Source: a virus
Direction: 5' to 3' (one strand)
Virus record (IMG/VR): IMGVR_UViG_3300045988_159115
Length of the DNA: 64,000 nucleotides
Part shown: one piece after another, positions 30,080 to 51,014 of the stretch
Layout of the letters: every line of letters begins with the position of its first letter
Numbering within the stretch: position 1 is the first letter of the stretch
Made by a program: the position numbers and the translations under genes
The notes under the pieces: model-generated
What the model saw: only the letters and a program-made list of their open reading frames with translations
What the model was told of the DNA's origin: nothing
Database searches by the model: none

Positions 30080-33000
30080 TTAGACCCCAAATGCAATGCG
30101 ACGAGCAACCAACTCGGCATTTGTCATGGAAGAATCAGAGACACTTCCATTATTATATGACTTCTTGAATGCTCCGCGAGGAGTTGTTACGCTGGATTTG
30201 CTATCACCTTTTCCACCAGTCATCGGAGTATAATTCGAAGCTTTGATCTTCGAAATACCTTCTTTGATGTCGGACAGCTCATCCAGATTTTCAGTATTAC
30301 CAGAGATCGTACTAAGAAGAGCAACCATCTTATCCATAAGAATAAGAACCTGAGTGTTGTCAACACCACGGCCGCCATTCTTTTCCTTAGAAGTATAGCT
30401 AGAAGAATGAGGAGCTTGATAATAGCTACGGGTCTGATAAGAATCCACAGTAGAATTATGCTCATTCGTCCGATCAATGGATTTTGCCACAGGAGCAAAC
30501 CGCATATCCTTGACAGTAGCGCCTCTTCCACCCTTTCTATCAGCTCCGCTAATAGCATCAACGCCAGAATTCTGCTTAGCCTCATTGAACTTGTCATTGA
30601 TATAATCTTTGCCAGCTTTCAGTGCAACCGGCAGGACTACATCCTCCAAGACCACCTGACCAAGCGGACGCTTAGCAAGCTCTTCCTTGCGTTTCTTCTC
30701 TTCCTCAGCTTTCTTCTTAGCTTCAGCCTGTCTCTTACGCTCAGCACGAGAAACTTTCGGCTTTTGTCCAGTAAGTTTCTCAAACCATTCGTCAGAATGC
30801 TGATCAACCTCATACTCGAGATAAGCTCCAAGAAGTTGTCCACTAAGCGAGCCGATTCCGTCAGCGACCTTCTCAGCACCGCTCTGTTTCTTCTTCTTAG
30901 AATTCGTCTTCTTAGGACCATTGCCACCCTCTTCGCTCATGACATCTTTCCCATGGAAAGCCTGATAGTATTTCTCTGCCCACTGAGCACGAGGTGCAAA
31001 CTGACTAGACGTTCTAGCACGATTGTCGCCCCAACCAGGCATCTCATATCCGCCGAGAACAGCAGTAGCGGCATCAACAGGAGATGTGATGGTCTTAAGA
31101 CGATTAAATGTCTTGCGATATGCCGAACTACCGTTCTTAAACTCATCAAGCGCAAATGCGATCTGAGTATAAAGATTACCGATAGACGTCTTCTTCTGCT
31201 TCGCAAAATTAAGAAGTCTCTCTTTACGAGAAGTTTTATTAGGCTGATTTGCATAAGTCCATTGAGCAAGGCCATAGCCAGCAACGTCACTAGACTTATC
31301 AGGGAATCTACCATGCTGATCAGCATACGCAGTATATTGATCATCAGACATTCCGTACCGCTTATTGTACGAATCCTCCAGATTCTTAGGCTGTAATCTA
31401 GATTCGTTGTGCCAGCATCCAAGAACACCAGCAGCACCAGCATCAGACATACCAGCTTCACGAAGTTTACGGAAGATATTACGAGCGTTACCTTCAATCG
31501 TGCCAGTATCAGCATCAGCTCCACTAATACCGTCCACGTCTTCATCAGACGAACTAGACGAAGTATCTGTGTCGCCATTGATCTCATTCACCACTGCGTC
31601 CCAATCAACATCCATATTACCAGTAACAGCAGCTTCGAACATCTTGCTACCAATTGTGGACATTGCATTCGACATCAGTGAGAAGAACGACGCACTCTTA
31701 GATTCAGTATCACTATCGTAATAGCTATCACTTGCATCAGCACCATCAGCAGATGCTGCGGCAGAGTTATTGAACTGAATCGTACCCTTAGGAGCCTGAG
31801 TGTAATTAGCACCTGGCTTACCAGGAGTCCAAACGCAAGAATACGTTTTATAAGCACGACCTGTTGCAGATGCAGAGTTTGCAGAATTCGGAGATCCGAC
31901 GTTATAGACGAAAATGTTACCATTCAGTCTACCAGCGTAAATCTCAGTATGGCCAGACTTTGCAACGATATCACCAGGCTGGAGATTCCAGTTGGAGAAT
32001 GTCTTATAGGTGAATCCTGTATTTGCCATAAGCCCATTCTGATGAGTCATCTCACCAGAATAAAGCTGAGTGGAATCAGGAAGTACACCATAGAACTTCA
32101 GACATGCAGACACGAAGCCAGAGCAATCAGAACGAGTCCGAATAGTACGTCCACCAATTGTGACGTTGACATATCTATTTGAACTGTATCCAACACCAGA
32201 TCTTGCGATCTGCTTCTTTACTTCAATGACGATATCCATCCAGCGATCGCGATTGCTTCTACCACGGCCACCAACAACGCGACGAATGATATTACGGAAA
32301 CTCTTACGATGGCCGGAACCACCATAAGGCTTGTAATCGTCAAACGTCCAAACTGCTGATGTGTTATTATTGAGCTCATCGGGAGACACTGCTCCAGAAT
32401 ACTCAACGCCGCGAGGATCGTTAATGATAATATTGCCATTCGAATCAACGCCGTTTGCAACCACATAGTGGCCAGAATCAGTATAAGGAGAATTTCCATT
32501 ACCGTTATCACGGCCAAGAAGCATGACAGGACCGTTGGAATTGCGAACCTTACTGACGATCTCAGAGGAAGACGGATTCCGTTCCATAGAAGAGCGTACG
32601 CCATAAGCGCTTGCTGCATTCTGAACGAAATTCATATTCGTACCAGTTTCGTCACGGTCGCCAGTCTGCTGAGCAAGACGTGCAAGAGACACAGGATCAG
32701 TGTGATTTGCAGAGACATCCGAAAGAACCATTGCCATAGCCGTCGGGCCACAGCCGGTATCAGACATTGTTGCAGATGCATCAGAACCATCAGCCTTAGA
32801 GTAGGACTTCGATGCCCAACGAGAATCGTCCTGAGAATAATAAGTGCCACCATTCAGTGTATCAGGAGCAAGCCCACGACCACCGGATGTCTTACGGCGG
32901 CCAGAGCCACCTTCAGTCTTGTTAATCTCTTTAACGTCATTATTGATCTGATCCCAATCAACACCGTTACCAGAACCACCATCTGTCTTCTTCTTACCAC

Positions 33001-36000
33001 GGATCCAATCCATGAGAGAAGTACCGATGGAGTTGATAGCGTTCTTAATGGTGTCTCCGATGCTGTTGAAAATTCGAGGAATACCTACTGTAATCCAAGA
33101 AGCAAGTTTAATGGCACCGCCAATAAACTTTTTGAGACCATTGTCTTTTGAGTTCGGCATTTCAGCCTTCTCGAATCCAGACCAAGACTTGCTAGGATCA
33201 GTATATTGCTTCAGAGTTGACTGATAAGCTGCAATATCCTTATCAATTCCACCAAGTCCGACTGCAGTGAGAGCCTTGTCGACAAGTCCGCCGATCTTAT
33301 TCATGGCATAATTATAACCAGTGACAATATACATCGGAGCTCTGGAAATCTTAACGATTGCACCAGATAAGAGGCCCTTAGTTTTATCCTTACCAGCAGA
33401 AAGGAATTTAGAAAAGTCGCCAGTCACAGCAGCGTCCCAAGACTCGCCAACACCAGTCTTAATTGCGTCAATCTGCTCTTGATGGCTATCAATGAATTCA
33501 TCAATCTTACCCTTAACGCCTCTGATAGCAAATGCAGGGAGAGATCCGATAAGGAACGGAAGCTTCAGAACACCACAGACTGCTCCAGAGATTCCAGCAA
33601 GAGGACCATCAAAGTCGATATTAGCGTTACCAATTGCAGAAGGATCACCCTTCACCATATTGACGCTATAATCGGCAAGATGCTTAGGAATTTCAGCAAT
33701 ATTACCTGCTGCTCCGCCAATAAACTCAGGAACTTTCTTAAGCAGGAAGTCTCCACCAACAGATCCAAGCTTGCCAATCAAATGACCGACAAACACTGCA
33801 ACCTTACCAACACCAAGTGTTGCTCCGATGATTCCGTGGAGAGGGTTGTTCGGATCGGAAGTATTGACTTTAGCCTTTGCATAAGACATGAAATCAATAT
33901 TTGGATCGTTGAAGTTCTGATTGATTGTGCGGAAACCTGTTACAAGTGCACTACCAGCATCACCAAGAGTAGTAGTAAGATTCTTTCCAAAATTACCAAA
34001 GAACTGCTTGGCAGAATTAAATCCGCCCTTAATCATTTCAATGGGTTTTGTAAGAAGTCCACTCTTCTGCTCAGTAGTATCCTCGTAGCGACCGTTCTCA
34101 CCAGTCTGTCCCTCGAATGCTCTAGCATCAAGCTTAGCTGTTCCCAGCTGCTTACCAGTTGTAGCATCGTATGCCGAGAAAGTACCATCACTGTTTTCAC
34201 GATACTCAGTATTGGACTGCTTATCGACGAAAACTCTCTGCTTCTTACCGACGAGTTTCTCACGAGCCTTGTCGCCAAAGCCCTTAAGACCCTTCTGAAG
34301 ACGAGAACCAAGTGTCTGATTCTTCTCATCATTATAGTCAGCAAACGACTGAATATTTGCGCCATACTCGCCATTCTTAGCACCCTCAGTGAATTGCTCC
34401 AAAGTAACGCTAGGATCGAGCAGGCCTGCTTTGATCATCTCATTATACTGAGACTCAAGGTTTGAACTCACATTGGCATCGTATGCTTCCTTAAGTTCAG
34501 TCTGACCAGCAGCCAGAGCAGCAAACTTATCGTCACCAGCCACCATCTGATAAATCAGAGTAGCCAGTTCAGTATACATATCAACGCCAGTAACAGAAAC
34601 GATCAACTCATTGACACAGTCAACGATACTACCAAATGTTGAACCACTGAATGCACCAAAGAGTCCAGCGATGATCATCATAGTAGCATCTGGCTGACTA
34701 GATGTGCGGAAAAGTCTCTTAGCACCAGAAACGCCATTGATAGCACCAAGAACCACCCAAGTAGATTCTTTTGCTGCATAACCAACAACTGTAGTTGCGA
34801 GACCAGCTGCTGTGCCGAGAATAGTTGCAATCTTAGCAGAAATCTTCTTAAAGTGCTTCTGGACACATCCGGTCGCACTAGACAGAAGTTTGGTAACCTT
34901 ACCAGGTTTGATTGAGCCGCCAAATCGAGCGCTTGCTTTCTCCATGATGCTAGAGAAGAATTTCTTCACAACGTCAATGACTTTTGTGATACCACTCTTC
35001 TCACTTGCAGCCATGATCTTATCAGCTGTTGTATTCGCAAACTTACCAACCTTCGATGCAACAGATGCTACATGGTCACCGTTATTGATGTTATCCTCCA
35101 TCATTCCTGTGAGGATTTCATTGGAGAAGGTTTCGTTCGATAATGCCTTACCAGCACCATACTTGAAACCATTCACTGCAGAAGAGGTAACCTCAAGGTA
35201 TTTATTCTTGATACCACTACCAATCTTATTCTTAAGACCAGAGACAGCTTTACCGGCTCTTGTATTAGCAAGAGCATTGCCGATGAATTTTCCACCCTTA
35301 CGAAGATCACCACCAAGGTTCTTGATGTTGTCAATTCCACCCTTCACCTTAGGAATAGCCTTCTTACCAGCCTCATAGATCGTGTTTGCGCCACCAGCAA
35401 CGCCTTGCGCGAGAAGCTTGGTACGAGCTCCAGTTTCGTTGTAAATATTACCGTCCTTATCATAGAGGAAACTCTTGATAGCGTCCGGAATATTACCAGT
35501 AAGAAGATTACCAACGGTGTTCTTCAAACCATCCAGTTCATCAGAAATGACATCTGCAGATGTTCTACCGTCACCGAGTCTTTCCTTTCCATACATATAG
35601 TCCGAAACAAGACGTTCTGCAGGATTCGTTGACTCGGAAGACCCATTGCCAGGATTTGCAAAGAGACTGATAAGTCTACCAAGAAGCTTCAGCACCATAG
35701 GAGCAAGGAGAATGAATGCACCTGTGATAATACCCTTCTTCGAGAAAATCGAATTCCAGATAGTATTATGAGAATGAATACCTTCGTTAATGGATTCCAT
35801 CAAACCAGTATTCTTCTTATCCTTTGCTTCCTGCTCAGCCTTTTCATCAACAGCAGCACGCTGAGCACGCTGTTCATCTGCTGTCTTACCCTTAGGAGCA
35901 GACTGATCCGGATTGATAGTTGCGTCACCGTAAGAAATCTCACCATCGGTAGTTTCCTCACTAGCAACGGTCTTACTAGGATCAATCGTAGCATTGGCTT

Positions 36001-39000
36001 TCAGTGCAGAAGTGATTGCGGTATTTGCACCAGCAAACGGAGAATTTGAATTTCCAATATTCGGTACCGAAATATTGGTAGGAGCCTTCACGGACGCATC
36101 CGTAGAAGTATAGGTTTTCGTGATATTGGTATCGGCATCTTCACGAGCAGTTTCCATATCACTAAATCCACCCTTAACGGTATCAAAGATACCACCGAGC
36201 AGATCACGGATATCCGCAAAGATACCTACGAGGCCAGTACGAGCAGAAGCATCATTCGGAATGACCTTCTCGCCACCAGCCATCTCACGAACTTCAGGAC
36301 CGCTGGTACCGACGACAGTTGCACCCTTATCGGTAACAACCATCTCTTCGCCTTCCTCACCGACATCGGCGGGACCCGGCTTAGCATTATCGGTACCATC
36401 AGCATAATGAGCACGCTTCCTCTTTGCTTCAAGCTCCTCTTTGCGTCTACGGCGACGTTCCTCAAGTGCACGATGTGCTGCTTCCTTTGCTTCGCGATTT
36501 GCTTTGACGCGATCAAGATACGCCTCATAGTTAATATCGCGTTGCTGTTTCATCTCATGACGAGTCTGATCGGAATCCAGCATCGTGCCATTCTTACGAC
36601 GGTCTTTACGACGCTGCTTATAATCTTTATTCGATTCTTTAGCGCCAGCACGAAGACCACCGATATTGGACAGAGCAACTTCAATACCGCCAAAGAACCC
36701 ATAGTCCTTCATGTAGTCAGAGAACTTCTTTTGACGATCCTTAGAAGACGACTTTGTTGCGCGATCACGTGCAGCTTCAGCAATCTTAATTTCAGCACCA
36801 TGATTTCCGTTCTCATCCTTATGAAGAAGCTCAATATTGCGATCGGTGTTACGATCAGTATATCCCTGAGCCTTACCTGTTGTAAAAGCTTCCGCCTTTG
36901 CTTCGTCTTTTGTAAGCTTAGGTTTACGGCCAAGAATAAAATCGAGCGCCTTATGAAGAATAGCATTCGTATCCTTCTGGACATCGAGCGATGCATCCTG
37001 GAATTTCTCAGTTTTGATCTGAGATTCAGTCTTGATGGCATCTCCCTTGAAACTGATATGCTCACCACGCTCAAGCGCAGCAGCTTTTGCAAATGCACGG
37101 TTTTCCTCAGTATCTTCCGATCTCTGATTCTTCGTGTACTTTGCAATCAGTCTCTGGTTATTAAGGAGGTCTTTGCGTTTCTGCCGACGCTCCTTAGCCA
37201 TATTCTTCTGACGTTCTTTTTTTTCCTTATTTAAACGAACTCTTGTCGCCCAAGGAAGACCCTTACCGGCATCTTTAATACTGCCATCAGGATTAAAGAG
37301 CATCTTGGAGCTAACGTCCTTCTTTTCCATTCCGTACTTTGTTGAATCCCAAACCTTACGGAAATAAGCTCCGAGACCACTACCCTCTTCGCGCTTCTCA
37401 GCTCCAAGACCAAAGAACTTACGACCCTTATCAATGATACCATTGATCCAAGTCATAGGATTCATGAAGTGAAGGATGTTCTTAACAGATTTTGTGATTG
37501 CGCCAGTAACCTGATCACGAACGTAAGTAACAGCAGACTTTGCAAGATCAACCACAGGACTCACAAGACGGCGCATACCGCCCTGAACCCAGCGAAGAGC
37601 ATCTTGTGCACTCTTGAAAGCAGTCTGAATCAGACGCATCGGCCAAGAATTCATGACGGCGTCTTTTACATCACGAAGAACCGAGATGCCAAAACGACCA
37701 ATATGAGCGACAGTGCCGATGATCTTATCATTAATGAATCCGAATGTCTTCTGAACTGCCTTAAACGGGAGAGAAACAGCAGTGCCAATAGCTTTTGCAG
37801 CAACACCGAGTGCCTTAGAGAATACACCAAAAGTAGTCTTAACTGCGAGACCGATCGGAGTAGTAATCGCCTTAATAGCGAGACCAACGCCATGACGAAG
37901 TGCAGTAGCCATGGGCGACAGCATTGTCATAACGAGATTGATCGGTGTAGAAATGATTGCTTTAGCAGCTCCCCAGATAGCATTACCAGCTGCAGTAGCT
38001 GCGGCAGTAACAGGCTGAAGAATCTTCTTCGTAGCATCGACCATTCCACCAAGGAAGTCTTCCTTAATGAATCGGCCGACATCTTTTGCAGTATTCCAAG
38101 CAAACGAAGTCAGACTACCAATCATGGACGATACAGCATCGCCAATCGGTTCCATGATCAGAGTGATCTTATTGAAGACGTCAAACTGAAGGAAATTCTT
38201 CGCGTCGTCAATGAAGTTTGCAGCAGCATTCTTGATAGGCTGGAATACGGAGACATTCAGAGCATTCTTAAACTGGCCAAGAATACCTTCTCGTTTTACT
38301 CCAGTCTCTTCATCAACTTTGCCGAACAGCCATTCATGGAAGTTATCCTTCTGAGCAAGAATAGCTGCACCAAGACCAAGAGATGCACCGAGAACAGGAC
38401 CGCCAACGAGAGTACCGAGTAAGCCGCCTGTGCCAAGGCCAATACCAAGCATACCAGCAAGCTTACCGCCAGAAACGCCACCATTGGATTCAGCATCACC
38501 AACGATGTTGCGCATCCACTTCTTGCCAAGAGTGACAATACCGAGCTGTCCGTTTTCAGCATCACCAAAAAGGAACTTCTGGAAAATTTCACTCTTTAAA
38601 ACAGTAGCGGATGCAAGACCCATGAGTGCGCCAGCAATAGGACCGCCGACGATAGTACCGAGGATACCACCACCAGTGATTGTACCAGTAACGGCACCTA
38701 CTGCAGCGCCGCCTGTTAAGAACTTTCCATGCTCATGGAAGAATTCTTGAGTTTTATCACTGATAAAGCCTTCGTGGTCTTCTGTACCAAAAAGCCAATC
38801 TTGGAATTTTTCAGACTTTGAAAGAATACCACCAGCAAAGCCAAGAAGAGCTCCGCCGATAGGACCACCGACGAGAGTACCGAGTAAACCGCCAGCAGCA
38901 ACGCCGCCAGCAGCACCAACGGCTGCGCCAGCCATTCCGGAAGGAAGCATCTCAGAGGCTTTCTCTTTGATAGAATCAATGACTTCTTGCTGAGTCTTCT

Positions 39001-41803
39001 CATCATCTTCGTCATCATTCGTACCAAAAAGAGCGTTCTTCCAACCAACTAATCCTTTACGTAAAGAATCTGCTACAGAAGATAATCCAGAGGTAGCCTT
39101 ATGAATAAGGCCTTCTTTTCCAGATTCTTCTTCGCCCTCTTTTTTCTCGCCAAAGAGACGAACCTCAATACCTTCTTTGATATGATTGACCATACCGGTA
39201 AGCTTACCCTTAACGGTATTCTTCATCTCTTCGTCATTGGCCTTCGGAACAGCAGTGCCATCTGCTGCAATGTAACCTTCACCTGTGATCATATGGCGCA
39301 GGCCAAAATATGATTCACGGATTCGGTTATTCACACCAGAAAGAATACCATTCTGCTTATAGCCATTCTCGTCCTTGCTACCAAAGAGAGTTTCTTTTAA
39401 AGGAGTAAGGAATTTCTCAGAGATATATTCTCCGGCCTTAGTAAACGAAGCACCAAGACCCTTCATCATAGCGTCCCAAGCAGCATCAGAATCTCCATTC
39501 ATGATACCAGCAAGGACGCCACTCGCTTTCTGGAAGAAAGTAGCAGTAATACCACCAAGCTGACCTTTTTCAGGTTCAGGCTGAACGATATTCGGCTGAG
39601 CAGCAAAGAGCTTTTCGTAGTCGTCTGCTGTCTGCGGGCCCTCAGGTTCAGGAGGATTGACAAAATGATTCAATACGGGAGCCTGGCTCGCTGCTTGTTG
39701 TGCAGAAACGAGCAGACCGTGAGCATTCTGCTTAAACCCTTCCATCAACGGATGATTCGGTACATATACACCAGTTTTCTGGTCTCTATGGTACATCGTT
39801 CCGTCAATGCCCTTTGTCTCGTCATTATACGGGATTCTGATATCGTCGTCAATATCTACGCCGTCCAGCTTACGACGAATCTGGACGAAAATACCACGAC
39901 GAAGAATATCCCGAATGTCAGTGACAAGAGAAGGAAGAGAAGCTGCCGGGCTCGGATTAACAGGACGAATCTCTCCACCCTGCTTAATCGTCTCAACAGC
40001 ACGGTCATTGATCATCTGATCAATATTACGGCCATCAAAAATCTTACCGACGTTATTATGCTCACCCGCTTCGTTGTAACCGGTAACAGATTTGACTCGG
40101 TTTGCAGATGCTCTCTGCTTTGCATAGTTTGCGGAAATTAATGCTCCATCATTGGTTTTCACCATATTCTGGAACATGCCAAGATAAGCATTCTTTACCC
40201 GCTCATCAGCAGTCTCAAGACTATTGATAAGAGTCTCTCGATTCAGGGCATCTTCAAGACGAAGCGGACCATTGATCTGCTCCATCTTGAGAAACAGCTC
40301 AGGAAGACTCTTTAAGAATGATTCTTGGAGAGCTGGATCAACTGACCCAAGGTTTGCAGCATAAATCTTTGCTTTCTTACCAAAATCACTCTTGTTAAAT
40401 TCATTGACCGTATCATACGTGAGGTTATCCGTGATCTCATCACGCATCTGTTTTACGGTCTTATATCTGCCTTCCTCCCAATCATATGCCTGAATATTCT
40501 TATCGAAATCACTCGCGTTCTTACCAGTAACAGCAATTGCGATCTGCTGTAAATATCCGGTAGACTCACGAAGATATTTCGGAATAATTTCAGTAATGGC
40601 ATGGTTGGCCATTCCGTTATACGGAACCGGAGTCGCGTCAACTCTCTTGAGGTCAAAATCTTTGGTACGCTTTGTTCTCGTACCAAAGATAGCACCAATT
40701 GTACGCTTACCTTCACCAATGAGGGTTGCATCATCTTCACCCCAAGCACCAATACGCTCAAGGACAGAAGGAATGAATGCTTTCAAAGTATTATCAAACT
40801 GCTTCATAGCAGATTTGGTAATCTTCGGAATCATTGCATCAATACCCATCTTAAGAGCAGCGCCTACAGGATTTGCTGTAAGAGCTTCCTTGTTCTCAAG
40901 AAGAGTATTTGCCATACCAACCACGTTACCGAGTGCGGTTGCAGATTGGTCAATCTTTTTGATATTCTGAGTAACGTACTTGACATAATTACCCAGATCG
41001 AATCCGCCTTCCATGGTGACAAGGTCCTTCGAAGTGATCTCGTCTTTCCCACCCTTGTACGGATCTTCCTGCTTAGGAGTCATTTGCTCATAGTATGCGA
41101 TAGAAGCATCTATGAACTTCGTCATATTCTCTGTCTGATAATTCAGTAATGCAGAGATGTTAGAATTAATTGACGTTAACTGACCAATTACTTCTTGACC
41201 GATCTCAGCATTTTTTGCCAAAGAAATAGACGTAAGCGAAACCATCGCATCAACTTGTGCCTTAGCAGCAGTAAGTTGATACTCGGATTGCTTTTGGATT
41301 AATCGAACGGTCGCATCATTGCTTCCATTAGACTGCGTTTGATTAACTACGTTATTATTGATTTGGACATTTGTGTCGTCATCAATATCTGAGAAAGAAA
41401 CGTCTCCAGAAGAATCAAAGAGTTTATCAATATCATCTTCTGAAAATTGATCTTTCTGGTCACCATAACCACCCATGAGCGCTTTTTCTTCACGCTCTTT
41501 ATTATAGAGATTACCAGATTTCAAGTCTTGCAGCGAGTTATCAATTACCTGCTGGGCGAATTTAACTGCCGGAGTACCTTTGATCATGGTAATTACTTTT
41601 CCGGAGGTTAACTTTGAATCTCGAATGGTCTTTGCAACTTCCGATGAAGATTGTGATACCGACTTAATAGTAGAAGCGGTTGACGGCATGATGTCTTTGA
41701 TGACTTCAGTGCCAGCCAAACCGAGACTATTAAGAGCATTTCGTAACCAAGGAGAATTTAACTTCGTCCTGGTTACCGTGATATCGGTATTTTTCTTAGC
41801 CAT
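30080..41803 (-). CDS. giant tape-measure-like virion protein with three cell-wall hydrolase domains (3,907 aa)
   Basis: Single uninterrupted ORF. There are three GGLLGTLVGGP…FQxWLFG glycine-zipper repeats (aa ~956-1161), long helical and K/R/E-rich stretches, and a …VGEEGEEMVV…GGEKVIPN motif typical of tape measure proteins. The C39-like domain reads YYSQDDSRW…TGCGPTAMAMVL…GHYVV…NDP (aa ~2985-3135). The NlpC/P60-like domain reads RSDCSGFV…GHTEIYAG (aa ~3190-3310). The phage-tail-lysozyme-like domain reads AAGVLGCWHNES…GYGLAQWT (aa ~3435-3620). Confidence 0.85.
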   Translation of the reverse strand: MAKKNTDITVTRTKLNSPWLRNALNSLGLAGTEVIKDIMPSTASTIKSVSQSSSEVAKTIRDSKLTSGKVITMIKGTPAVKFAQQVIDNSLQDLKSGNLYNKEREEKALMGGYGDQKDQFSEDDIDKLFDSSGDVSFSDIDDDTNVQINNNVVNQTQSNGSNDATVRLIQKQSEYQLTAAKAQVDAMVSLTSISLAKNAEIGQEVIGQLTSINSNISALLNYQTENMTKFIDASIAYYEQMTPKQEDPYKGGKDEITSKDLVTMEGGFDLGNYVKYVTQNIKKIDQSATALGNVVGMANTLLENKEALTANPVGAALKMGIDAMIPKITKSAMKQFDNTLKAFIPSVLERIGAWGEDDATLIGEGKRTIGAIFGTRTKRTKDFDLKRVDATPVPYNGMANHAITEIIPKYLRESTGYLQQIAIAVTGKNASDFDKNIQAYDWEEGRYKTVKQMRDEITDNLTYDTVNEFNKSDFGKKAKIYAANLGSVDPALQESFLKSLPELFLKMEQINGPLRLEDALNRETLINSLETADERVKNAYLGMFQNMVKTNDGALISANYAKQRASANRVKSVTGYNEAGEHNNVGKIFDGRNIDQMINDRAVETIKQGGEIRPVNPSPAASLPSLVTDIRDILRRGIFVQIRRKLDGVDIDDDIRIPYNDETKGIDGTMYHRDQKTGVYVPNHPLMEGFKQNAHGLLVSAQQAASQAPVLNHFVNPPEPEGPQTADDYEKLFAAQPNIVQPEPEKGQLGGITATFFQKASGVLAGIMNGDSDAAWDAMMKGLGASFTKAGEYISEKFLTPLKETLFGSKDENGYKQNGILSGVNNRIRESYFGLRHMITGEGYIAADGTAVPKANDEEMKNTVKGKLTGMVNHIKEGIEVRLFGEKKEGEEESGKEGLIHKATSGLSSVADSLRKGLVGWKNALFGTNDDEDDEKTQQEVIDSIKEKASEMLPSGMAGAAVGAAGGVAAGGLLGTLVGGPIGGALLGFAGGILSKSEKFQDWLFGTEDHEGFISDKTQEFFHEHGKFLTGGAAVGAVTGTITGGGILGTIVGGPIAGALMGLASATVLKSEIFQKFLFGDAENGQLGIVTLGKKWMRNIVGDAESNGGVSGGKLAGMLGIGLGTGGLLGTLVGGPVLGASLGLGAAILAQKDNFHEWLFGKVDEETGVKREGILGQFKNALNVSVFQPIKNAAANFIDDAKNFLQFDVFNKITLIMEPIGDAVSSMIGSLTSFAWNTAKDVGRFIKEDFLGGMVDATKKILQPVTAAATAAGNAIWGAAKAIISTPINLVMTMLSPMATALRHGVGLAIKAITTPIGLAVKTTFGVFSKALGVAAKAIGTAVSLPFKAVQKTFGFINDKIIGTVAHIGRFGISVLRDVKDAVMNSWPMRLIQTAFKSAQDALRWVQGGMRRLVSPVVDLAKSAVTYVRDQVTGAITKSVKNILHFMNPMTWINGIIDKGRKFFGLGAEKREEGSGLGAYFRKVWDSTKYGMEKKDVSSKMLFNPDGSIKDAGKGLPWATRVRLNKEKKERQKNMAKERRQKRKDLLNNQRLIAKYTKNQRSEDTEENRAFAKAAALERGEHISFKGDAIKTESQIKTEKFQDASLDVQKDTNAILHKALDFILGRKPKLTKDEAKAEAFTTGKAQGYTDRNTDRNIELLHKDENGNHGAEIKIAEAARDRATKSSSKDRQKKFSDYMKDYGFFGGIEVALSNIGGLRAGAKESNKDYKQRRKDRRKNGTMLDSDQTRHEMKQQRDINYEAYLDRVKANREAKEAAHRALEERRRRRKEELEAKRKRAHYADGTDNAKPGPADVGEEGEEMVVTDKGATVVGTSGPEVREMAGGEKVIPNDASARTGLVGIFADIRDLLGGIFDTVKGGFSDMETAREDADTNITKTYTSTDASVKAPTNISVPNIGNSNSPFAGANTAITSALKANATIDPSKTVASEETTDGEISYGDATINPDQSAPKGKTADEQRAQRAAVDEKAEQEAKDKKNTGLMESINEGIHSHNTIWNSIFSKKGIITGAFILLAPMVLKLLGRLISLFANPGNGSSESTNPAERLVSDYMYGKERLGDGRTSADVISDELDGLKNTVGNLLTGNIPDAIKSFLYDKDGNIYNETGARTKLLAQGVAGGANTIYEAGKKAIPKVKGGIDNIKNLGGDLRKGGKFIGNALANTRAGKAVSGLKNKIGSGIKNKYLEVTSSAVNGFKYGAGKALSNETFSNEILTGMMEDNINNGDHVASVASKVGKFANTTADKIMAASEKSGITKVIDVVKKFFSSIMEKASARFGGSIKPGKVTKLLSSATGCVQKHFKKISAKIATILGTAAGLATTVVGYAAKESTWVVLGAINGVSGAKRLFRTSSQPDATMMIIAGLFGAFSGSTFGSIVDCVNELIVSVTGVDMYTELATLIYQMVAGDDKFAALAAGQTELKEAYDANVSSNLESQYNEMIKAGLLDPSVTLEQFTEGAKNGEYGANIQSFADYNDEKNQTLGSRLQKGLKGFGDKAREKLVGKKQRVFVDKQSNTEYRENSDGTFSAYDATTGKQLGTAKLDARAFEGQTGENGRYEDTTEQKSGLLTKPIEMIKGGFNSAKQFFGNFGKNLTTTLGDAGSALVTGFRTINQNFNDPNIDFMSYAKAKVNTSDPNNPLHGIIGATLGVGKVAVFVGHLIGKLGSVGGDFLLKKVPEFIGGAAGNIAEIPKHLADYSVNMVKGDPSAIGNANIDFDGPLAGISGAVCGVLKLPFLIGSLPAFAIRGVKGKIDEFIDSHQEQIDAIKTGVGESWDAAVTGDFSKFLSAGKDKTKGLLSGAIVKISRAPMYIVTGYNYAMNKIGGLVDKALTAVGLGGIDKDIAAYQSTLKQYTDPSKSWSGFEKAEMPNSKDNGLKKFIGGAIKLASWITVGIPRIFNSIGDTIKNAINSIGTSLMDWIRGKKKTDGGSGNGVDWDQINNDVKEINKTEGGSGRRKTSGGRGLAPDTLNGGTYYSQDDSRWASKSYSKADGSDASATMSDTGCGPTAMAMVLSDVSANHTDPVSLARLAQQTGDRDETGTNMNFVQNAASAYGVRSSMERNPSSSEIVSKVRNSNGPVMLLGRDNGNGNSPYTDSGHYVVANGVDSNGNIIINDPRGVEYSGAVSPDELNNNTSAVWTFDDYKPYGGSGHRKSFRNIIRRVVGGRGRSNRDRWMDIVIEVKKQIARSGVGYSSNRYVNVTIGGRTIRTRSDCSGFVSACLKFYGVLPDSTQLYSGEMTHQNGLMANTGFTYKTFSNWNLQPGDIVAKSGHTEIYAGRLNGNIFVYNVGSPNSANSASATGRAYKTYSCVWTPGKPGANYTQAPKGTIQFNNSAAASADGADASDSYYDSDTESKSASFFSLMSNAMSTIGSKMFEAAVTGNMDVDWDAVVNEINGDTDTSSSSSDEDVDGISGADADTGTIEGNARNIFRKLREAGMSDAGAAGVLGCWHNESRLQPKNLEDSYNKRYGMSDDQYTAYADQHGRFPDKSSDVAGYGLAQWTYANQPNKTSRKERLLNFAKQKKTSIGNLYTQIAFALDEFKNGSSAYRKTFNRLKTITSPVDAATAVLGGYEMPGWGDNRARTSSQFAPRAQWAEKYYQAFHGKDVMSEEGGNGPKKTNSKKKKQSGAEKVADGIGSLSGQLLGAYLEYEVDQHSDEWFEKLTGQKPKVSRAERKRQAEAKKKAEEEKKRKEELAKRPLGQVVLEDVVLPVALKAGKDYINDKFNEAKQNSGVDAISGADRKGGRGATVKDMRFAPVAKSIDRTNEHNSTVDSYQTRSYYQAPHSSSYTSKEKNGGRGVDNTQVLILMDKMVALLSTISGNTENLDELSDIKEGISKIKASNYTPMTGGKGDSKSSVTTPRGAFKKSYNNGSVSDSSMTNAELVARRIAFGV

Positions 41804-46401: not shown

Positions 46402-47319
46402 TTACGACGCAGAGAAATGCTTATCCTCTTTGTGGTCTTCCTTATCAGCTGTGCCAGCCATGGGAAGATTCTTTACCCACATCTCAAGAGAATCCATATA
46501 CTTCTGCTTCCACTTGCTCATCTGATTCGGATCATCATTCTCACTCATAGGCTTCACATACAGAGCCTTGAAGCCATTATCGAGAACCTTCCACTCCCAA
46601 TACTTCGGAGTCGTATTGAAGCGATAATCCTTTGAAAAGACGATACGTGCAGACGATGCTGTCTTACCGTTGATGACGCCATCCTTATTTCGGTCTCTCT
46701 TAAAATGAGAATCCATATAACCGGGAGAAGAATACTTCACACGGTAACCCTTACCCTCAAGTGCAACAACGATGTGCTTGATCGGATCAGGAGTCTTCTC
46801 ATTGGAATCGTCATTATTCGCATCAGCTTCAAAGAAACCTTTAAACATGGAATCCACAAGATTCGTACTTTCCATTTTTAACTCATCTCCTTTGATATAT
46901 TTCTTCAAGCGGTTCTTTTCTCCAATTACGTCTATAGTAATAGAGTACTCTTTCATTTTCTCGAAGATTGCCTTAGCTAGTTGTTTTTCGTGCTGTTTGT
47001 CAACACGGTTAAACATCTGAATTGCAAGAAGTACATGCTTTTTATCCGGCATGGGATACTTCTTTAATTCAGGAATTCCATAGTCAGACAAAGCAACTTT
47101 ACTGCGATCCAGCTTTGCTTCCAGAGTAAAATTCAAACTCTGATTAGCAAGTTCATTCGTTCTCCGAATCAGATCGTCTACGGTTACTTTGTCATATTCA
47201 TGCTTTCCACAACTACCACTTAGATCAATCGTAGGAAGCATTGCGCCTACAGAATATTCATTCAATTCATCATCTGAAATCTGAGTAGATGAATCATCAA
47301 ATACTGAAATATTTTTCAT
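46402..47319 (-). CDS. hypothetical protein (305 aa)
   Basis: Complete ORF with a GAAAGGAG RBS. Two-part architecture: an N-terminal half ending …KKYPMPDKKHVLLAIQMFNRVDKQHEKQLAKAI…, and a C-terminal half with no motif recognised. Confidence 0.85.
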   Translation of the reverse strand: MKNISVFDDSSTQISDDELNEYSVGAMLPTIDLSGSCGKHEYDKVTVDDLIRRTNELANQSLNFTLEAKLDRSKVALSDYGIPELKKYPMPDKKHVLLAIQMFNRVDKQHEKQLAKAIFEKMKEYSITIDVIGEKNRLKKYIKGDELKMESTNLVDSMFKGFFEADANNDDSNEKTPDPIKHIVVALEGKGYRVKYSSPGYMDSHFKRDRNKDGVINGKTASSARIVFSKDYRFNTTPKYWEWKVLDNGFKALYVKPMSENDDPNQMSKWKQKYMDSLEMWVKNLPMAGTADKEDHKEDKHFSAS

Positions 47320-47361
47320 GGATTACGATTTCTCCTTTCTATTAAAATTAGTATATAGTCA

Positions 47362-47410
47362 AAACAGAAATAACCCCAGTGTAGCATGATGGAAACTACA
47401 CTGGGGTTAT
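47362..47410 (-). terminator. terminator after the Mre11/SbcD gene
   Basis: 15-bp stem ATAACCCCAGTGTAG / CTACACTGGGGTTAT, followed on the minus strand by TTCTGTTTTG. Confidence 0.7.
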
Positions 47411-47483
47411 TTACTGATGGTAGGACATAGATAGATTGAAGTTATGGAAACCTTCGACCCTATCAAAATGTTACTGTAGTAAT

Positions 47484-48671
47484 TTATTGAGAAAGAAGAT
47501 ATCGCTTCACATCTTCTGGAGCAATTTCTTTTCCATACTCATCCTTGATGAAATAACTTACTTTATCTTCTGTAGATAGATTATCATCAAAGATAAATCC
47601 ATACTTATTCTTCATTGCAGTCAAAACTTCTTTATCTGCTTTATACTGAGAGGAAGCTTTCAAATTCTTCACTGCAATTTTAACGGATGGGTTATTCTTA
47701 TATCGCTCTCCAATAATTTTTGTAAAAGCTGTATCTTCTTGGTAATCTTCTGGGATATTAAAAACGTATCGAGTATGCTCAACACCAAGATCTTGATTGA
47801 CAGAATCCATTCTACCGAGAGTATCTATCAGCTCTTCTTGAGAAGAGTAAATATTGCTTCCTTTGGAAAACTGAATGGTATTAAATTTTGGAGCAAGTTC
47901 ATTCACAATAAATTCGTTTTCATACCTAGACTTACTAGGAGTAAATGTAAGATGATAAAAGCCTTTTTGCTCTTCTTCACCAAACTGCCACCTACTGTAG
48001 CTCCCTACATAATGAACGGTATCACGAATTGTAGAGTGAATGTGATAATGACCAAAATAGACTTCTCCATTACAAGCGTCCATCAATTCTTCTGATGAAA
48101 ATACTGGAACTTTCTTTCTACTACTGCTCTCATTAGAAGATTTGATAGATACCATAATATCATTGATCACTCCATGACCAAAAATATAGTCATAAGAATT
48201 TTCAGAATAGAGGTAATCTTTATAAAAATCTTCTTTTGATACCATGTATTCTTCTGGAAGATATAATACATGCATATCTGGTAGAAGTTCTTCATCAGAA
48301 ACTGATTTTATGATTCTGAAGTCAATATCTTTTCTGTCTTTATAGACATCAAAAATTCCATATTGATTTGATTCATGAGATTCTGTACCATAGATAATCC
48401 GAATTGGACAGAATTCTCCACAATCTGGATTCGTATGTCTCTTTGCAATTTCTACTACTTGATTCATAAATTCAATTGCATAAGAAACTGAATCATCATT
48501 TAATGAAAGTCTTTTATCAAAATAATCTCCATCAAAGATAATGAAGTTTAATTGATCCATAGATTCTATATATTGAAGAAAAACTTCTTCTAATTCTCTT
48601 TTTAGATGAGTAATATTAGTAGATCCAAAATGAATATCTGCTATTACTACTCCTTCATATTTTTTCTTCAT
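47484..48671 (-). CDS. sbcD: Mre11/SbcD-family metallophosphoesterase nuclease (T4 gp47-like), 395 aa
   Basis: Ordered phosphoesterase motifs are IADIHFG (D-x-H), FDGDYFD (GD-x2-D), YGTESHE, FGHG and GHYHIH. The ATG at 48671 (MKKKYEG) follows AAAGGTGA by 5 nt. Confidence 0.8.
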   Translation of the reverse strand: MKKKYEGVVIADIHFGSTNITHLKRELEEVFLQYIESMDQLNFIIFDGDYFDKRLSLNDDSVSYAIEFMNQVVEIAKRHTNPDCGEFCPIRIIYGTESHESNQYGIFDVYKDRKDIDFRIIKSVSDEELLPDMHVLYLPEEYMVSKEDFYKDYLYSENSYDYIFGHGVINDIMVSIKSSNESSSRKKVPVFSSEELMDACNGEVYFGHYHIHSTIRDTVHYVGSYSRWQFGEEEQKGFYHLTFTPSKSRYENEFIVNELAPKFNTIQFSKGSNIYSSQEELIDTLGRMDSVNQDLGVEHTRYVFNIPEDYQEDTAFTKIIGERYKNNPSVKIAVKNLKASSQYKADKEVLTAMKNKYGFIFDDNLSTEDKVSYFIKDEYGKEIAPEDVKRYLLSQ

Positions 48672-48731
48672 AGATTTCACCTTTTTATCTTTATAGATTA
48701 TTTTTACGTAGAAGAAGAAATCTATACTCAC

Positions 48732-48758
48732 TTATATTATATATTTTATATTATATAT
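48732..48758 (+). promoter_or_regulatory. tandem duplicated promoter-like box (2 x TTATATTATATAT)
   Basis: Two exact 13-mers 14 bp apart. Both contain the TATATTATAT core in plus orientation and point into the ORF-free region 48760..49350. Confidence 0.4.
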
Positions 48759-48966
48759 TTCGCCTCTCAAAAAATTTTTAAAAACATTTCATCATTTTTT
48801 CATAGATTGCTAGTTATATTAATTATTATAGGTTGAGATATATGAAAAAACGTTAAAATGTTTAAAGTGAAAAATAGAGAAATCAATAAAGTTCTAAGGG
48901 TAAGTAAAAATCATAAAAATTTCACTTCTATTTTTTGGAAATTTTTTCATCTATTTTGGGGTAAAA

Positions 48967-49016
48967 TTTGGTAGAAATTGATCGAATCTAAAAATTCGGA
49001 ATCAACTTCTACCAAA
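48967..49016. repeat. long imperfect inverted repeat / hairpin
   Basis: TTTGGTAGAAATTGATCGAAT … ATTCGGAATCAACTTCTACCAAA. About 20 of 23 positions pair, with a 6-nt loop. Confidence 0.7.
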
Positions 49017-49103
49017 AAATTCAAAAATTGGGGCAAAAAAAGACTCGAGCGCTTGAACAGGACACCGAGTCAAAAATCGCCGCGACCTGACATGCATTCG
49101 CGA

Positions 49104-49199
49104 CTTACTTCTTTTTTCTTTTCTTTCATTTATTCTAATTTCTTTTTCTTCTTTTCTCTCTTTTTCTTTCTTCTTATTCACTTTCTATTCTTGTATTAT
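49104..49199 (+). repeat. 96-nt polypyrimidine (C/T) tract
   Basis: cttacttcttttttcttttctttcatttattctaatttctttttcttcttttctctctttttctttcttcttattcactttctattcttgtattat is about 90 percent C/T on the plus strand. Confidence 0.85.
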
Positions 49200-49344
49200 T
49201 AGATGACCATATCTTTTCCCCCCTTCAGTCAGAATTATTTTTTACTACGAATTGGTCAGTATGACGTAGCAATCTGCCCCGGGGCGATACGGGCATGACT
49301 AAGATAACGATTAGCCAGCGAATTAGATATATATGAGAGATATG

Positions 49345-49390
49345 ATGAAAAATAATTAGCATACATAATTACTCTTATGTATGCTAATTA
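49345..49390. terminator. terminator after the 49415..50005 gene (bidirectional shape)
   Basis: 16-bp stem TAATTAGCATACATAA / TTATGTATGCTAATTA with a 6-nt loop. A-tract before and T-tract after on both strands. Confidence 0.75.
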
Positions 49391-49414
49391 TTATTTTAAA
49401 ATACAATTGTATTT

Positions 49415-50005
49415 TTATGCACCCTTGATCAGGCACATAGTGGTAGACTTGATATTACCACCAGCCCAAGCTGTGTTGTAATCTGCCATAGAAGCGAAAG
49501 TTTTGAAGCTTTCAGATGCGGCAGTGGCGGAAGATTTTGCTTCGGCTGCGATACTCTTAGCAGAGTCAGCTGTGCTCTTTGCAGTATTAGCAACGGACTT
49601 CGCTGAGTCCGCTGCTGTCTTAGCAGCATTTGCAGTTGTAACCGCATTGGATGCTGCCTTAGACGCGGCGCTTGCTGAATCCTTTGCTGTTGTAGCATTA
49701 GACATTGCTGTGTTAGAGTTAGTCAGCGCTGTGTCAGCAGTACTCTTTGCAGTATTTGCAGTCTTAGTAGCTGCATCTGCTGCGGTCTTAGCTGCATTTG
49801 CTGTGGAGTTGGCAGTGTTTGCTGTAGACTGAGCTTTGCTGGTAGCAGTATCCATGCTGGTGATCTTGGAAGCCAGCGTAGTACCTGTGCCGTTCATGAT
49901 AACGAGATTGCTCAGGGTACGAGGCAGGAACGGGATCTTACCATTGACGTTACCAGAAGAATCGAACGTCTTTTTATACAGCACACCCATTAAGGCATTT
50001 GCCAT
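49415..50005 (-). CDS. fibrous Ala/Thr/Ser/Asn-repeat protein (tail-fibre or whisker-like), 196 aa
   Basis: The central ~130 aa are degenerate repeats of the type TANTAKSTAD(T/S)A… (KAQSTANTANSTANAAKTAADAATKTANTAKSTADTALTNSNTAMSNATTAKDSASAASKAASNAVTTANAAKTAADSAKSVANTAKSTADSAKSIAAEAKSS). GC-rich codons. Confidence 0.6.
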   Translation of the reverse strand: MANALMGVLYKKTFDSSGNVNGKIPFLPRTLSNLVIMNGTGTTLASKITSMDTATSKAQSTANTANSTANAAKTAADAATKTANTAKSTADTALTNSNTAMSNATTAKDSASAASKAASNAVTTANAAKTAADSAKSVANTAKSTADSAKSIAAEAKSSATAASESFKTFASMADYNTAWAGGNIKSTTMCLIKGA

Positions 50006-50033: not shown

Positions 50034-51014
50034 TTACATCACACGAGCGAGTTCACTGTAGAACCTATTGATATTCTTCGTGTTCTTTATGATATCGTTT
50101 AAAGCCGTCTGACTCACCAAGAATGTGCTCATGACAACGTTCGTAATCACAAAGAATACATAAGGAAGATAATCAATGCTTAAGATAGATGACCCGTGGT
50201 AGGTCTTGATGAATCGTTCGATATAATATCTCAAATTCAGATCACTCATTCGAGGAGACAGCGATTTTACAAACTCTAAGAGATTTGCAATCGTTTTAAT
50301 CTCCATTTTAGAATAAGTGGCATCAAGTGCATCCAAATCAAACTGCTGAATATACTTCAGATCACTGGATGCGTAATTTGAGACAAGACCCGTATTAGGA
50401 TACTCCCATACACATTCCAGATAGAATCTCTTGATACAGTAGCACACTTTATCGTAAAGAACCTTATCCAGAGTGAGAGCATATTCCTTATTCAGGATTC
50501 TTGCCATCATCTCAGTATAGACGGAAGCTGTTGTCATCATCAGCTCTGCATTCTTCATAACCTTTACCGGATCGGTTTGAAGTTTCAGAGCGATATATGC
50601 ACCCTCCATCAGGCCGTAGAGCTGTTTTGCAGGAATGACAAGAATGGAATCGTCTTTAATCGTTGCAAACGCATTGATAAAGATAGTAGAAACGATCTTA
50701 CCATCACTTTTTCTACGTACGATGAAAGGCATGGCAACACCGACCTTTTCTGTATTATTCCAGATAATTTCGATATCGCCATTGTTAAATGCTTCCAGTA
50801 CTTTCTGAGATAGAGGGGAAATACCAGCACCACGACGAATGATCGCATACTGATCTTCAATGTAAGATTTATCAAGCAGAACGCCAGAGGATAAATACTT
50901 GACGATTTTATCTACAACGCCATTCGCTTGATTAAACGTCTTATAGACAAGAGAATCTTCCATTGTATTTTCACAGACGTAGTCGGCATCTGTGAGAAAG
51001 CGTGAAATATCCAT
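50034..51014 (-). CDS. hypothetical protein (326 aa)
   Basis: Complete ORF with an AAGAAAGGAG RBS. Located between the fibre-like gene and family member P5, so a virion role is possible by context only. Confidence 0.8.
   Translation of the reverse strand: MDISRFLTDADYVCENTMEDSLVYKTFNQANGVVDKIVKYLSSGVLLDKSYIEDQYAIIRRGAGISPLSQKVLEAFNNGDIEIIWNNTEKVGVAMPFIVRRKSDGKIVSTIFINAFATIKDDSILVIPAKQLYGLMEGAYIALKLQTDPVKVMKNAELMMTTASVYTEMMARILNKEYALTLDKVLYDKVCYCIKRFYLECVWEYPNTGLVSNYASSDLKYIQQFDLDALDATYSKMEIKTIANLLEFVKSLSPRMSDLNLRYYIERFIKTYHGSSILSIDYLPYVFFVITNVVMSTFLVSQTALNDIIKNTKNINRFYSELARVM

Follow-up and report, generated by a model that had tools for sequence, protein, structure and literature searches.

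A predicted late non-coding RNA gene with a folded 5′ domain and a purine tract recurs in AR9-like jumbo phages

A 740-bp gene-free region in a 64-kb stretch of DNA (the window) from the viral record IMGVR_UViG_3300045988_159115 of IMG/VR very probably carries a minus-strand non-coding RNA (ncRNA) gene that would be expressed late in infection, and that would define a new conserved family in jumbo phages related to AR9. We call its product the purine-tract RNA. Most likely this is a stand-alone gene, predicted from its signals to yield an RNA of ~335-410 nt from the minus strand. Transcription would start near 49370, at a late-type promoter (TACA-N6-TA) of the non-virion RNA polymerase (nvRNAP), proceed through a folded 5′ domain (49335-49203), a G-run and a purine tract of ~96 nt (49199-49104), and end at tandem intrinsic terminators, T2 (49071-49035) with T3 (49016-48967) as a back-up. 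From these signals we infer its transcription, its ends and the ways in which it may act. A sequence-only reading of this DNA had singled out the region as the largest non-coding stretch of the window, and had proposed either a plus-strand ncRNA or a replication origin. When both strands were read, all the features that it listed were located, and the region is indeed the longest in the window without a credible open reading frame (ORF), according to crude gene calls. Related loci used for comparison are designated by L-numbers (L002, L005 and so on).

We scanned all the fetched loci for purine/pyrimidine tracts and observed what appears to be the same architecture in at least seven phage lineages, at varying positions and orientations with respect to an SbcD-like nuclease gene. 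On the purine strand the order of the parts is the same everywhere: a late-type promoter motif, (A/T)ACA-N6-TA, a folded domain with a higher GC content, a G-run, a 50-350 nt stretch of purines found at the same position in all lineages, and one or two hairpins followed by U-runs. The last of these parts is a short motif, U-run-(A/G)CCC(C)-AAAAUU, which is the reverse complement of the repeated words noticed by the sequence-only reading, TTGGGGTAAAA (48956) and TTGGGGCAAAA (49028); these are 72 nt apart and represent the sole two copies in the 64 kb. In L006, L005, L040, L042 and L048 a U-run and (A/G)CCC(C/G)..AAAAUU follow the hairpin, and the terminator equivalents of these loci carry U6-U10 on the purine strand. 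The G-run takes the form GACU-N2-AGGGGG in four lineages (the signature motif being GACUUAAGGGGG in L006, GACUUCAGGGGG in L005 and GACUACAGGGGG in L039) and GGGGGAG(G) in L042 and L048. In the window, the tract at 49104-49199 is 88.5% C/T on the plus strand (65 T, 20 C, 10 A and 1 G), close to the ~90% first reported for it; the maximum obtained in 200 shuffles was 75%, and the tract is unique in the window except for one marginal 85% tract at 63854. The composition of the purine tract is kept between lineages, its sequence and length are not, and in L039 it is short and only ~70% purine.

The location of the element differs among these phages. Sister phages with a nuclease 57-59% identical to that of the window have a junction of just 87 bp, with one terminator, between the 197-aa gene and the nuclease gene, which gave the initial impression of a clade-specific insertion; this was ruled out by the presence of the element elsewhere in the same phages. 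In the sister clades (L005, L006, L018 and L044) it is located ~1.2 kb downstream of the nuclease gene and in the opposite orientation, in a third sub-clade (L039) it is found directly after the nuclease gene, and in L040, L042 and L048 (nuclease 45-50% identical) it lies 3-6 kb from this gene. No element was detected within 10 kb of the nuclease gene in L049 and L050; a tract present in L049 encodes a Lys-rich tail.

The folded 5′ domain of the sister clades consists of a junction of three hairpins, Pa, Pc and Pb, closed by a helix designated P0. The stems of L006, L005 and L039 differ in sequence and keep their complementarity, and Pc conserves a bulged A and the loop GU(A/C)UACC. A search for covariation in homologous regions had been proposed, and it revealed compensatory helix changes between the sister clades: RNAalifold, on a rough MAFFT alignment, found compensatory double changes in 6 of the 15 predicted pairs, and the Pc helix is among those with such changes between clades. 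The hairpins of the window occupy places equivalent to those of the sister clades, with a similar Pc loop (GUAUCGCC), and the distance from the GCUAA hairpin to the G-run is 115 nt, versus 112 and 103 nt in the sister clades. The helices defined by hand on the purine strand comprise 195 Watson-Crick pairs, 13 G.U pairs and 5 mismatches.

The region is carried by nine near relatives at 94-96% identity, with a nearly invariant 5′ domain. Variable columns were counted in eight near-identical relatives, and a 5′ block that was chosen after seeing the data (49203-49323) showed 2 in 122 (1.6%), as compared with 9.3% for all positions of the flanking genes, 22% for their third codon positions, 8% for the A/T-rich stretch 48761-48959, and ~26% for the tract and the hairpin that follows it. 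For this post hoc block, the binomial probability was 6e-4 when the rate of all coding positions was taken as the reference, and ~3e-11 when that of third codon positions was taken. Since variable columns are few and the small ORFs are frameshifted, this block of ~120 nt appears to be under a stronger constraint at the nucleotide level than the neighbouring proteins, and to be non-coding. The tract shows indels of +10, -7 and +2 nt among the relatives, and that of L018 is 41 nt shorter than that of L006; none of these is a multiple of 3.

A conserved small ORF was also looked for as an explanation of the region, and no conserved frame was found among the close relatives and the lineages. The ORF at 48978-49202 merely translates the pyrimidine tract, as had been noted. 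The remaining candidates were discarded as genes: an ORF of 38 aa is frameshifted in L012 and L013, one of 45 aa is frameshifted in L002, one of 31 aa is frameshifted by a 1-nt indel in 2/3 or 4/7 relatives, depending on the alignment, and the frames of two ORFs of 59 and 74 aa are not conserved across relatives or lineages. A three-codon mini-ORF located after the G-run is kept in all the close relatives, with a change of AUC to AUA in two of them; it is probably not the function of the element, because no start codon is conserved there in the other lineages.

These data bear on the possibility that the region produces no RNA of its own, and that it is an array of terminators or insulators, together with the remains of a decayed cassette (a lost small gene or a homing-endonuclease gene), which separates the late structural operon from the nuclease gene. 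The 87-bp terminator spacer used by the sister clades at the same junction, the three consecutive minus-strand hairpins, and the gene-start-like fragments of the A/T-rich module (ATGAAAAAACG) would agree with this arrangement. However, the 5′ domain is ~14-fold less variable than third codon positions, and the ordered parts recur, with compensatory helix changes, in phages whose nuclease proteins are 45-59% identical. We therefore consider this explanation improbable.

The assignment of the RNA gene to the minus strand is based on promoter, terminator and folding signals. AR9 has two phage-encoded multisubunit RNA polymerases; its early promoters, used by the virion RNA polymerase, have the sequence AAATATATATTAT-6N-G, its late promoters, used by the non-virion enzyme, have the sequence AACA-6N-T(A/G) in which the final base is the start site, and predicted terminators close its operons (PMC5312081). 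The transcription units of AR9 thus resemble what is observed here, with AACA-6N-TA before late genes, TATATTAT-6N-G before early genes, and hairpin terminators (PMC5312081). Judging from the distribution of both motifs, the window shares this early and late promoter grammar. The late motif AACA-N6-TA occurs at 20 sites in the window, 13 of which are intergenic, with intergenic DNA amounting to 12% of the sequence. The early core TATATTAT is present in 11 copies, and the nine located outside the gene-free region, when read gene by gene, are all on the strand of a downstream gene; for most of them the distance to its start codon is 30-60 nt. The early promoter of this phage has the form TT(T/G)A-TATATTAT-AT-N4-G/A, mostly 30-60 nt upstream of a ribosome-binding site (RBS) and start codon.

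In all seven lineages the late promoter motif of the element is on the purine strand, with the consensus AACA-N6-TA in L040, L042 (twice) and L048, and TACA-N6-TA-AT in L005, L006 and L039; the candidate promoter of the window, TACA-TAAGAG-TA, is one base off the AR9 late consensus. The U-runs behind the hairpins are also found on the purine strand only. In the window, U7 follows T2, AUUUUA follows T3, and UUUUUC follows T1, the hairpin that contains the candidate promoter. On the plus strand, A7 precedes the T2 hairpin and there is no U-run behind it. The T2 stem is kept in the relatives despite base changes, and in the sister clades an equivalent hairpin is followed by AUUUUUU; the equivalents of T3 in L006 and L005 have long U-runs behind them on the purine strand (U8GU10 in L006). 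A simple terminator scanner called none of T1, T2 and T3, and these terminators were assigned by reading the sequence and by RNAfold. In all three sub-regions the minus strand folds better than the plus strand (-34.1 versus -22.1 kcal/mol for the 5′ domain, -23.7 versus -17.5, and -24.3 versus -20.6 for T3). The long hairpin reported at 48967-49016, which corresponds to T3, was recovered, its z-scores against shuffles being -5.3 (plus strand) and -6.9 (minus strand), and the short GC-rich patch after it is visible in the GC profile. The bidirectional terminator that had been proposed, our T1, was also recovered, with arms at 49348-49368 and 49375-49395 that are 95% complementary. The RNA is antisense to both neighbouring genes in 5/6 other lineages (in L042 the upstream neighbour alone was checked), an arrangement consistent with an autonomous unit that has a promoter and terminators of its own. 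A scan for host sigma-70 promoters found 5 sites versus 10 expected, and the single good one, at 48770-48743 on the minus strand, is not conserved in the relatives.

The proposal of a long ncRNA of ~600 nt therefore holds in part: a long non-coding RNA is supported, and its placement on the plus strand is not, given that the promoter motif and the U-runs are on the minus strand. The proposed pairing of a CU-rich segment with ribosome-binding sites falls with it, since a minus-strand RNA is A/G-rich and cannot be a CU-rich RNA that pairs with Shine-Dalgarno (SD) sequences.

The two exact TTATATTATATAT boxes described in the region are present at 48732-48744 and 48746-48758, and this sequence, with up to 2 mismatches, has 16 matches in the window versus 3.9 expected, a count that none of 100 shuffles reached. 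They had been read as plus-strand promoters that point away from the nuclease gene, an orientation that is not clear-cut. On the plus strand, both boxes keep the intact 8-nt core TATATTAT(AT); box 2 is unchanged in all eight close relatives, and box 1 is lost in L004, L012 and L016. On the minus strand, AAATATATAATAT-AAGTGA-G agrees with the AR9 sequence AAATATATATTAT-6N-G in 12 of 13 positions and in the G, and its distance from the start codon of the nuclease gene (48671) is the usual one for a promoter, but this reading breaks the TT of the core and is eroded in relatives by a point change and a 2-nt indel. An early promoter serves the nuclease operon of AR9. In addition, an annotated early promoter of AR9 (KU878088.1, 227688-227700; locus L032, 27688-27700) points antisense into the late amidase gene g272, from which it follows that orphan or antisense early promoters exist in AR9-like phages. 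The orientation of the boxes is ambiguous from sequence, and the conclusion about the minus-strand gene is unaffected by it.

An early plus-strand RNA of ~600 nt, running from the TATATTAT boxes to the hairpin at 49348-49395 with its CU tract paired to ribosome-binding sites, would account for the preservation of the core in both boxes and of box 2 in the relatives; it would also agree with the location of the other nine core sites of the window on the strand of a downstream gene, and with the absence of a plus-strand terminator before 49348. On the other hand, the boxes have T at -1 and T or C at +1 in place of the near-invariant -1 A and +1 G, no RBS or ORF was found downstream of them, and the sister clades show no early motif on that side of the element. 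Moreover, the core folds worse on this strand (z = +0.84), the U-runs of the hairpins are on the other strand, the tract lacks any CC with which GGAG could pair, and the boxes read on the minus strand are at a normal distance from the nuclease start codon. Such an RNA is unproven and not a feature of the family, and we regard it as highly improbable.

With regard to the function of the purine-tract RNA, we favour, with considerable reserve, the idea that it acts in trans and that its tract, unable to pair, serves as a single-stranded binding platform. Purines cannot pair with themselves, so the tract would remain a long single strand. A trans-acting RNA is preferred because units that extend from promoter to terminator, with covarying helices and conserved loops, usually act as molecules, because the constraint is densest in the folded domain, linkers included, and because a single-stranded purine tract beside an SD-like G-run is suited for capture. 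The folded 5′ domain would allow a partner to recognise the RNA specifically, whereas the tract and the G-run would capture pyrimidine-rich RNA, for example the 3′ tail of 16S rRNA in 30S subunits; alternatively, the tract might bind a protein that recognises single-stranded purine RNA (Hfq-type). The RNA would then behave as a decoy or sponge during late infection, protected by its 3′ hairpins. A pairing of the G-run (GGGGG-N-AAAA) with the 3′ motif (UUUU-N-CCCC) was considered and rejected, as in no lineage did the real motifs pair better than shuffled ones.

The main alternative is a function in cis, that of an R-loop or primer element at an origin of replication or recombination, in which the G-cluster and the purine RNA that follows stay hybridised to the template, and the hybrid, beside the A/T-rich A-tract module, primes DNA synthesis or opens the duplex. 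GAA.TTC-type tracts make persistent hybrids if the RNA is the purine strand. In agreement with this, the RNA corresponds to the purine strand in 7/7 lineages and the G-run always precedes the tract; a nearest-neighbour estimate favours the hybrid over the duplex by -8.6 kcal/mol in the window and by -15 to -24 in other lineages, while an RNA of the opposite sense scores +33.6. The promoter motif adjoins a conserved 200-bp module of ~20% GC with three copies of ATGAAAAAA (3/4 of the window copies of this 9-mer are inside it), a promoter beside an A/T-rich unwinding region being typical of transcription-primed origins such as the T7 primary origin, T4 oriF/G and ColE1. The element is never more than ~6 kb away from the SbcD-like nuclease gene, in a neighbourhood of DNA-metabolism genes. 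Two ~262-kb contigs that break inside the region could be viewed in the same manner. Nevertheless, the window tract is in the top 3.4% of windows for hybrid advantage and is not the best site in the window, the position and orientation of the element shift between clades, the tract of L039 is short and degenerate, the strongest constraint is on the folded 5′ domain and not on the tract or the A/T-rich module, and the strong terminators right after the tract would free the RNA. The GC-skew check that had been suggested showed no inflection at the element: cumulative GC skew falls steadily past 49 kb and turns near 57 kb, and genes on both sides are on the same strand. The earlier proposal of a replication origin is thus left with its R-loop form alone, and its H-DNA form is not supported. 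That the purine-tract RNA is a primer or activator of replication or recombination start in the AR9-like jumbo phages, whose DNA probably contains uracil, seems to us rather unlikely.

The A/T-rich module shares stretches with L005 (~8400-8560) and L006 (~8420-8600), namely AGATATATG...GAAAAAACG and AAGTAAAAAT..TTTCA, which in these two loci also adjoin the RNA gene but have the reverse orientation with respect to it. Bent DNA, an array of binding sites or a decayed gene start are conceivable explanations of the module.

We also considered that the region works only as DNA, as an H-DNA or triplex tract or as a packaging (pac) site recognised by the terminase. The homopurine.homopyrimidine tract, the A-tract-rich DNA, which we would expect to be intrinsically bent, the conserved word TTTGGGG(G)TAAAA and the assembly breaks inside the region could be cited in its favour. 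The mirror symmetry required by the H-DNA proposal was not found in the tract, whose longest mirror repeat is 11, versus 10.4 +/- 1.9 in shuffles; similar values were obtained for five other lineages (six tracts in all, L039 having no qualifying tract and L048 being left out). The promoter and terminator polarity and the compensatory helix changes would also be left unexplained, and the contig breaks, in low-complexity spots, look like assembly artefacts; we find an element of this kind very improbable indeed.

As for those breaks, two independent contigs begin inside the region, L015 at its position 1 and L016 at its positions 1-33, one in the box repeats and the other in the purine tract, 434 bp apart. 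No counterpart of the first 33 nt of L016 was found in any other sequence fetched or scanned. Both starts are probably assembly breaks at low-complexity, indel-rich DNA.

Several observations weigh against a late minus-strand RNA gene that acts in trans. The promoter of the window is a one-base variant (TACA) that lies within a terminator hairpin and may be fortuitous, and TACA-N6-TA is weakly enriched between genes (4/16 window sites). The 13 G.U pairs of the helices would be A.C mismatches on the other strand, but this count is biased by our visual choice of the helices on the purine strand, and the z-score of the minimum free energy of the 5′ domain is modest (-1.5). SD-like GG motifs occur in the tracts of five lineages and are absent from that of the window, so that a sponge for anti-SD sequences is not uniformly supported, and a trans-acting RNA leaves both the conserved A-tract module and the U-run-ACCCC-AAAA motif unexplained. 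Regarding the family itself, an nhmmer profile of the sister clades gave its best window match at 49184-49021 on the minus strand (E = 2e-5, with a bias of 17.6), which indicates that the likeness of the window clade to other clades is weak and partly compositional. The same profile matched L039 with E = 2e-10 and gave no match in L040 and L042; the membership of these two and of L048, judged by architecture and short motifs alone, is probable. Because homology at the sequence level is weak, the family is defined by its architecture and short motifs.

No known RNA family accounts for the element. Rfam cmscan at gathering thresholds gave no match in the 64-kb window or in L005, L006, L039, L040 and L042, and a permissive search (E up to 10) of window positions 48500-49600 returned microRNA and small nucleolar RNA matches at chance level. 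ARAGORN detected no tRNA or transfer-messenger RNA in the window. In a blastn search of the region and two related elements against 50,697 GenBank phage records the element was unmatched, and scans of IMG/VR with exact patterns (a core 18-mer and a G-run 17-mer) retrieved the known relatives and chance matches in high-GC contigs only. In the ~100 kb of AR9 that were examined there was no purine tract outside coding sequence and no match to the profile; two purine/pyrimidine tracts of AR9 are inside coding sequences, one of them the tail-fibre gene g012, and the coordinate origin of AR9 is no more than two early promoters that diverge. No such ncRNA emerged from literature searches or from text searches of the AR9 transcriptome paper (PMC5312081) and of a 2026 jumbo-phage review, which do not amount to a full literature survey; these two papers likewise yielded no replication start. 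A similarity to a Cas12a repeat (AATTTCTAC...TAGAT) was discarded on inspection, given an 18-nt loop and a reversed order of the arms.

Compared with known systems, the element would work like an ncRNA gene of the GOLLD/ROOL type or like a primer of the ColE1 RNA II type, and is a member of neither. GOLLD and ROOL, carried by phages of Gram-positive hosts, are likewise ncRNAs of several hundred nt with their own transcription signals that were found by conservation and have no known partners, and their function is unknown or has only recently begun to emerge. However, they are densely structured throughout, whereas about one third of the RNA described here is an unpairable purine tract of variable length. 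In ColE1 RNA II and at T4 oriF/oriG, the RNA is transcribed from a promoter, folds in its 5′ part, contains a G-run, and remains hybridised to the template beside an A/T-rich region, near replication genes. In contrast to these origins, the element has terminators after the tract, moves and inverts, and shows no skew or strand-switch signature. The CsrB/RsmZ sponges also have repetitive, single-stranded, purine-rich segments able to titrate a factor, and their GGA motifs have a parallel in the GGA/GGAG that is frequent in the tracts of five lineages. Their multiple GGA motifs are not a conserved property of the element, with GG counts of 0 in the window tract and 5-6 in other lineages; in addition, its motifs are not in hairpin loops and it has a conserved, non-repetitive 5′ domain. 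Finally, STAB-SD, the 5′ stabiliser of Bacillus mRNAs, is a strong, G-rich SD-like site that does not start a conserved ORF, but the G-run of the element is ~150 nt inside the RNA, after a folded domain, and is followed by a purine tract and not by a coding region.

The source phage is an uncultured relative of the Bacillus jumbo phage AR9/PBS1. The matches of the virion protein encoded at 50034-51014 are restricted to AR9, PBS1 and related Staphylococcus and Listeria jumbo phages, at ~24% identity, and the relatives of the window are metagenomic contigs of ~250-263 kb. The intergenic AACA-N6-TA sites suggest a gp226-like recognition of the template strand, possibly in uracil-containing DNA. 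Genes of the dCTP-deaminase/dUTPase family are beside or near the nuclease gene in L048 (9378-9998), L049 (12946-13638) and L050 (12526-13248), which fits a PBS1-like dUMP-DNA metabolism.

The gene-free region is flanked by the SbcD-like nuclease gene, with 715 database relatives at E < 1e-10, and by a gene for a 196-aa, tail-fibre-like alanine-zipper protein (Table 1). The DNA of the nuclease gene and its surroundings (47001-49000) is A/T-rich, with ~31% GC versus ~41% across the window. The 196-aa gene is hypervariable among near-identical relatives, with 27% variable columns versus 8-10% in the flanking genes, and the variation is densest at 49500-49800. Diversifying selection on a host-range determinant, or repeat shuffling, may account for this. 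A link of this gene to a diversity-generating retroelement or a retron was rejected, as eight flanking proteins lack a reverse transcriptase domain (Pfam, PHROGs) and the region contains no template repeat. Elsewhere in the window, on the minus strand, there are genes for a GroEL-like chaperonin (3183-5246; PHROG 5725, E = 5e-64) and a DNA polymerase (7697-9823; PHROG 2927, E = 4e-83), and an ORF of 3,907 aa (30080-41803). The counterparts of this ORF in related loci have 3,541-4,030 aa and bear Peptidase_C39_2, CHAP and phage-lysozyme domains; its product is likely a giant virion-associated cell-wall hydrolase or a tape-measure-like protein. In L050, a gene-free gap at 14889-15716 contains several GGTTCGAA-type sequences resembling the T-arm of tRNAs on the minus strand, and is probably a tRNA cluster.

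Table 1. Predicted parts of the purine-tract RNA gene, in minus-strand order, and other features of the window
Feature	Position	Strand	Remarks
T1, A/T-rich hairpin immediately behind the 196-aa gene's stop codon	49348-49395	both	Bidirectional terminator; 21-nt arms, 95% complementary
Candidate late-type (nvRNAP) promoter TACA-TAAGAG-TA, inside T1	49370-49381	minus	Predicted start A at 49370
Folded 5′ domain with three hairpins (Pa, Pc, Pb)	49203-49335	minus	Constraint and fold
Hairpin Pa, GGCUAA/UUAGUC	49297-49316	minus	
Hairpin Pc, loop GUAUCGCC	~49271-49300	minus	
Hairpin Pb, UGCUACG/CGUAGUA	49243-49271	minus	
Signature motif CUGACUGA-AGGGGGG (GACU-N2-AGGGGG plus G-run)	49218-49232	minus	Shine-Dalgarno-like
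Mini-ORF AUG GUC AUC UAA, three codons, 8 nt past the G-run	49199-49210	minus	Kept in all close relatives
Purine tract	49104-49199	minus	88.5% purine; no GG dinucleotide
Small GC hairpin CGCGA...UCGCG	49081-49102	minus	RNAfold
T2, predicted intrinsic terminator	49035-49071	minus only	GC-rich 10-bp stem, one bulge, then U7; fold and sequence
Motif copy 1, (U-run)-GCCCC-AAUUUUUGA	49021-49034	minus	Reverse complement of plus-strand word AATTGGGGCAAAA
T3, long hairpin	48967-49016	minus	20 bp; G.U pair in place of a plus-strand A.C mismatch
Motif copy 2, AUUUUACCCCAAAAUAG	48950-48966	minus	Reverse complement of plus-strand word TTTTGGGGTAAAA; matches CAUUUACCCCCAAAAUUAG of L040
A/T-rich A-tract module, three ATGAAAAAA copies	48761-48959	unstranded	~20% GC; GC profile
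Two TTATATTATATAT boxes with early core TATATTAT	48732-48758	plus	Orientation and target ambiguous
SbcD-like metallophosphatase (nuclease) gene	47484-48671	minus	Weak Metallophos match
196-aa alanine-zipper protein gene, tail-fibre-like	49415-50005	minus	Virion protein gene adjoins
Candidate early (virion RNA polymerase) promoters	10738, 42533, 43174, 43512, 44954, 54779, 58673, 62731	that of the downstream gene	Essentially the AR9 early consensus
Intergenic AACA-N6-TA sites (13)	9897, 15374, 24930, 26256, 30058, 41877, 42411, 43556, 47461, 51060, 52228, 54812, 61324		AR9 late consensus match; usually AAA before

The element is most likely a newly described, conserved and independently signalled non-coding unit of the AR9-like jumbo phages, as far as its sequence signals indicate. 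The AR9/PBS1-like phages are a large and mostly uncultured group, in which automatic annotation leaves the element blank or fills it with spurious low-complexity ORFs, and in which assemblies are likely to break because of it. Its build is unusual, in that a constrained folded domain is joined to a purine-only tract of 50-350 nt. If the RNA acts in trans, it would represent a new class of phage RNA that could titrate a host factor late in infection. If it were instead a primer, it would be to these phages what RNA II is to ColE1 and the polypurine tract to retroviruses, and the first defined replication start for AR9-like phages, and it could show how their DNA replication begins. As a further alternative, an entirely new ribonucleoprotein of late infection might be built around this RNA.

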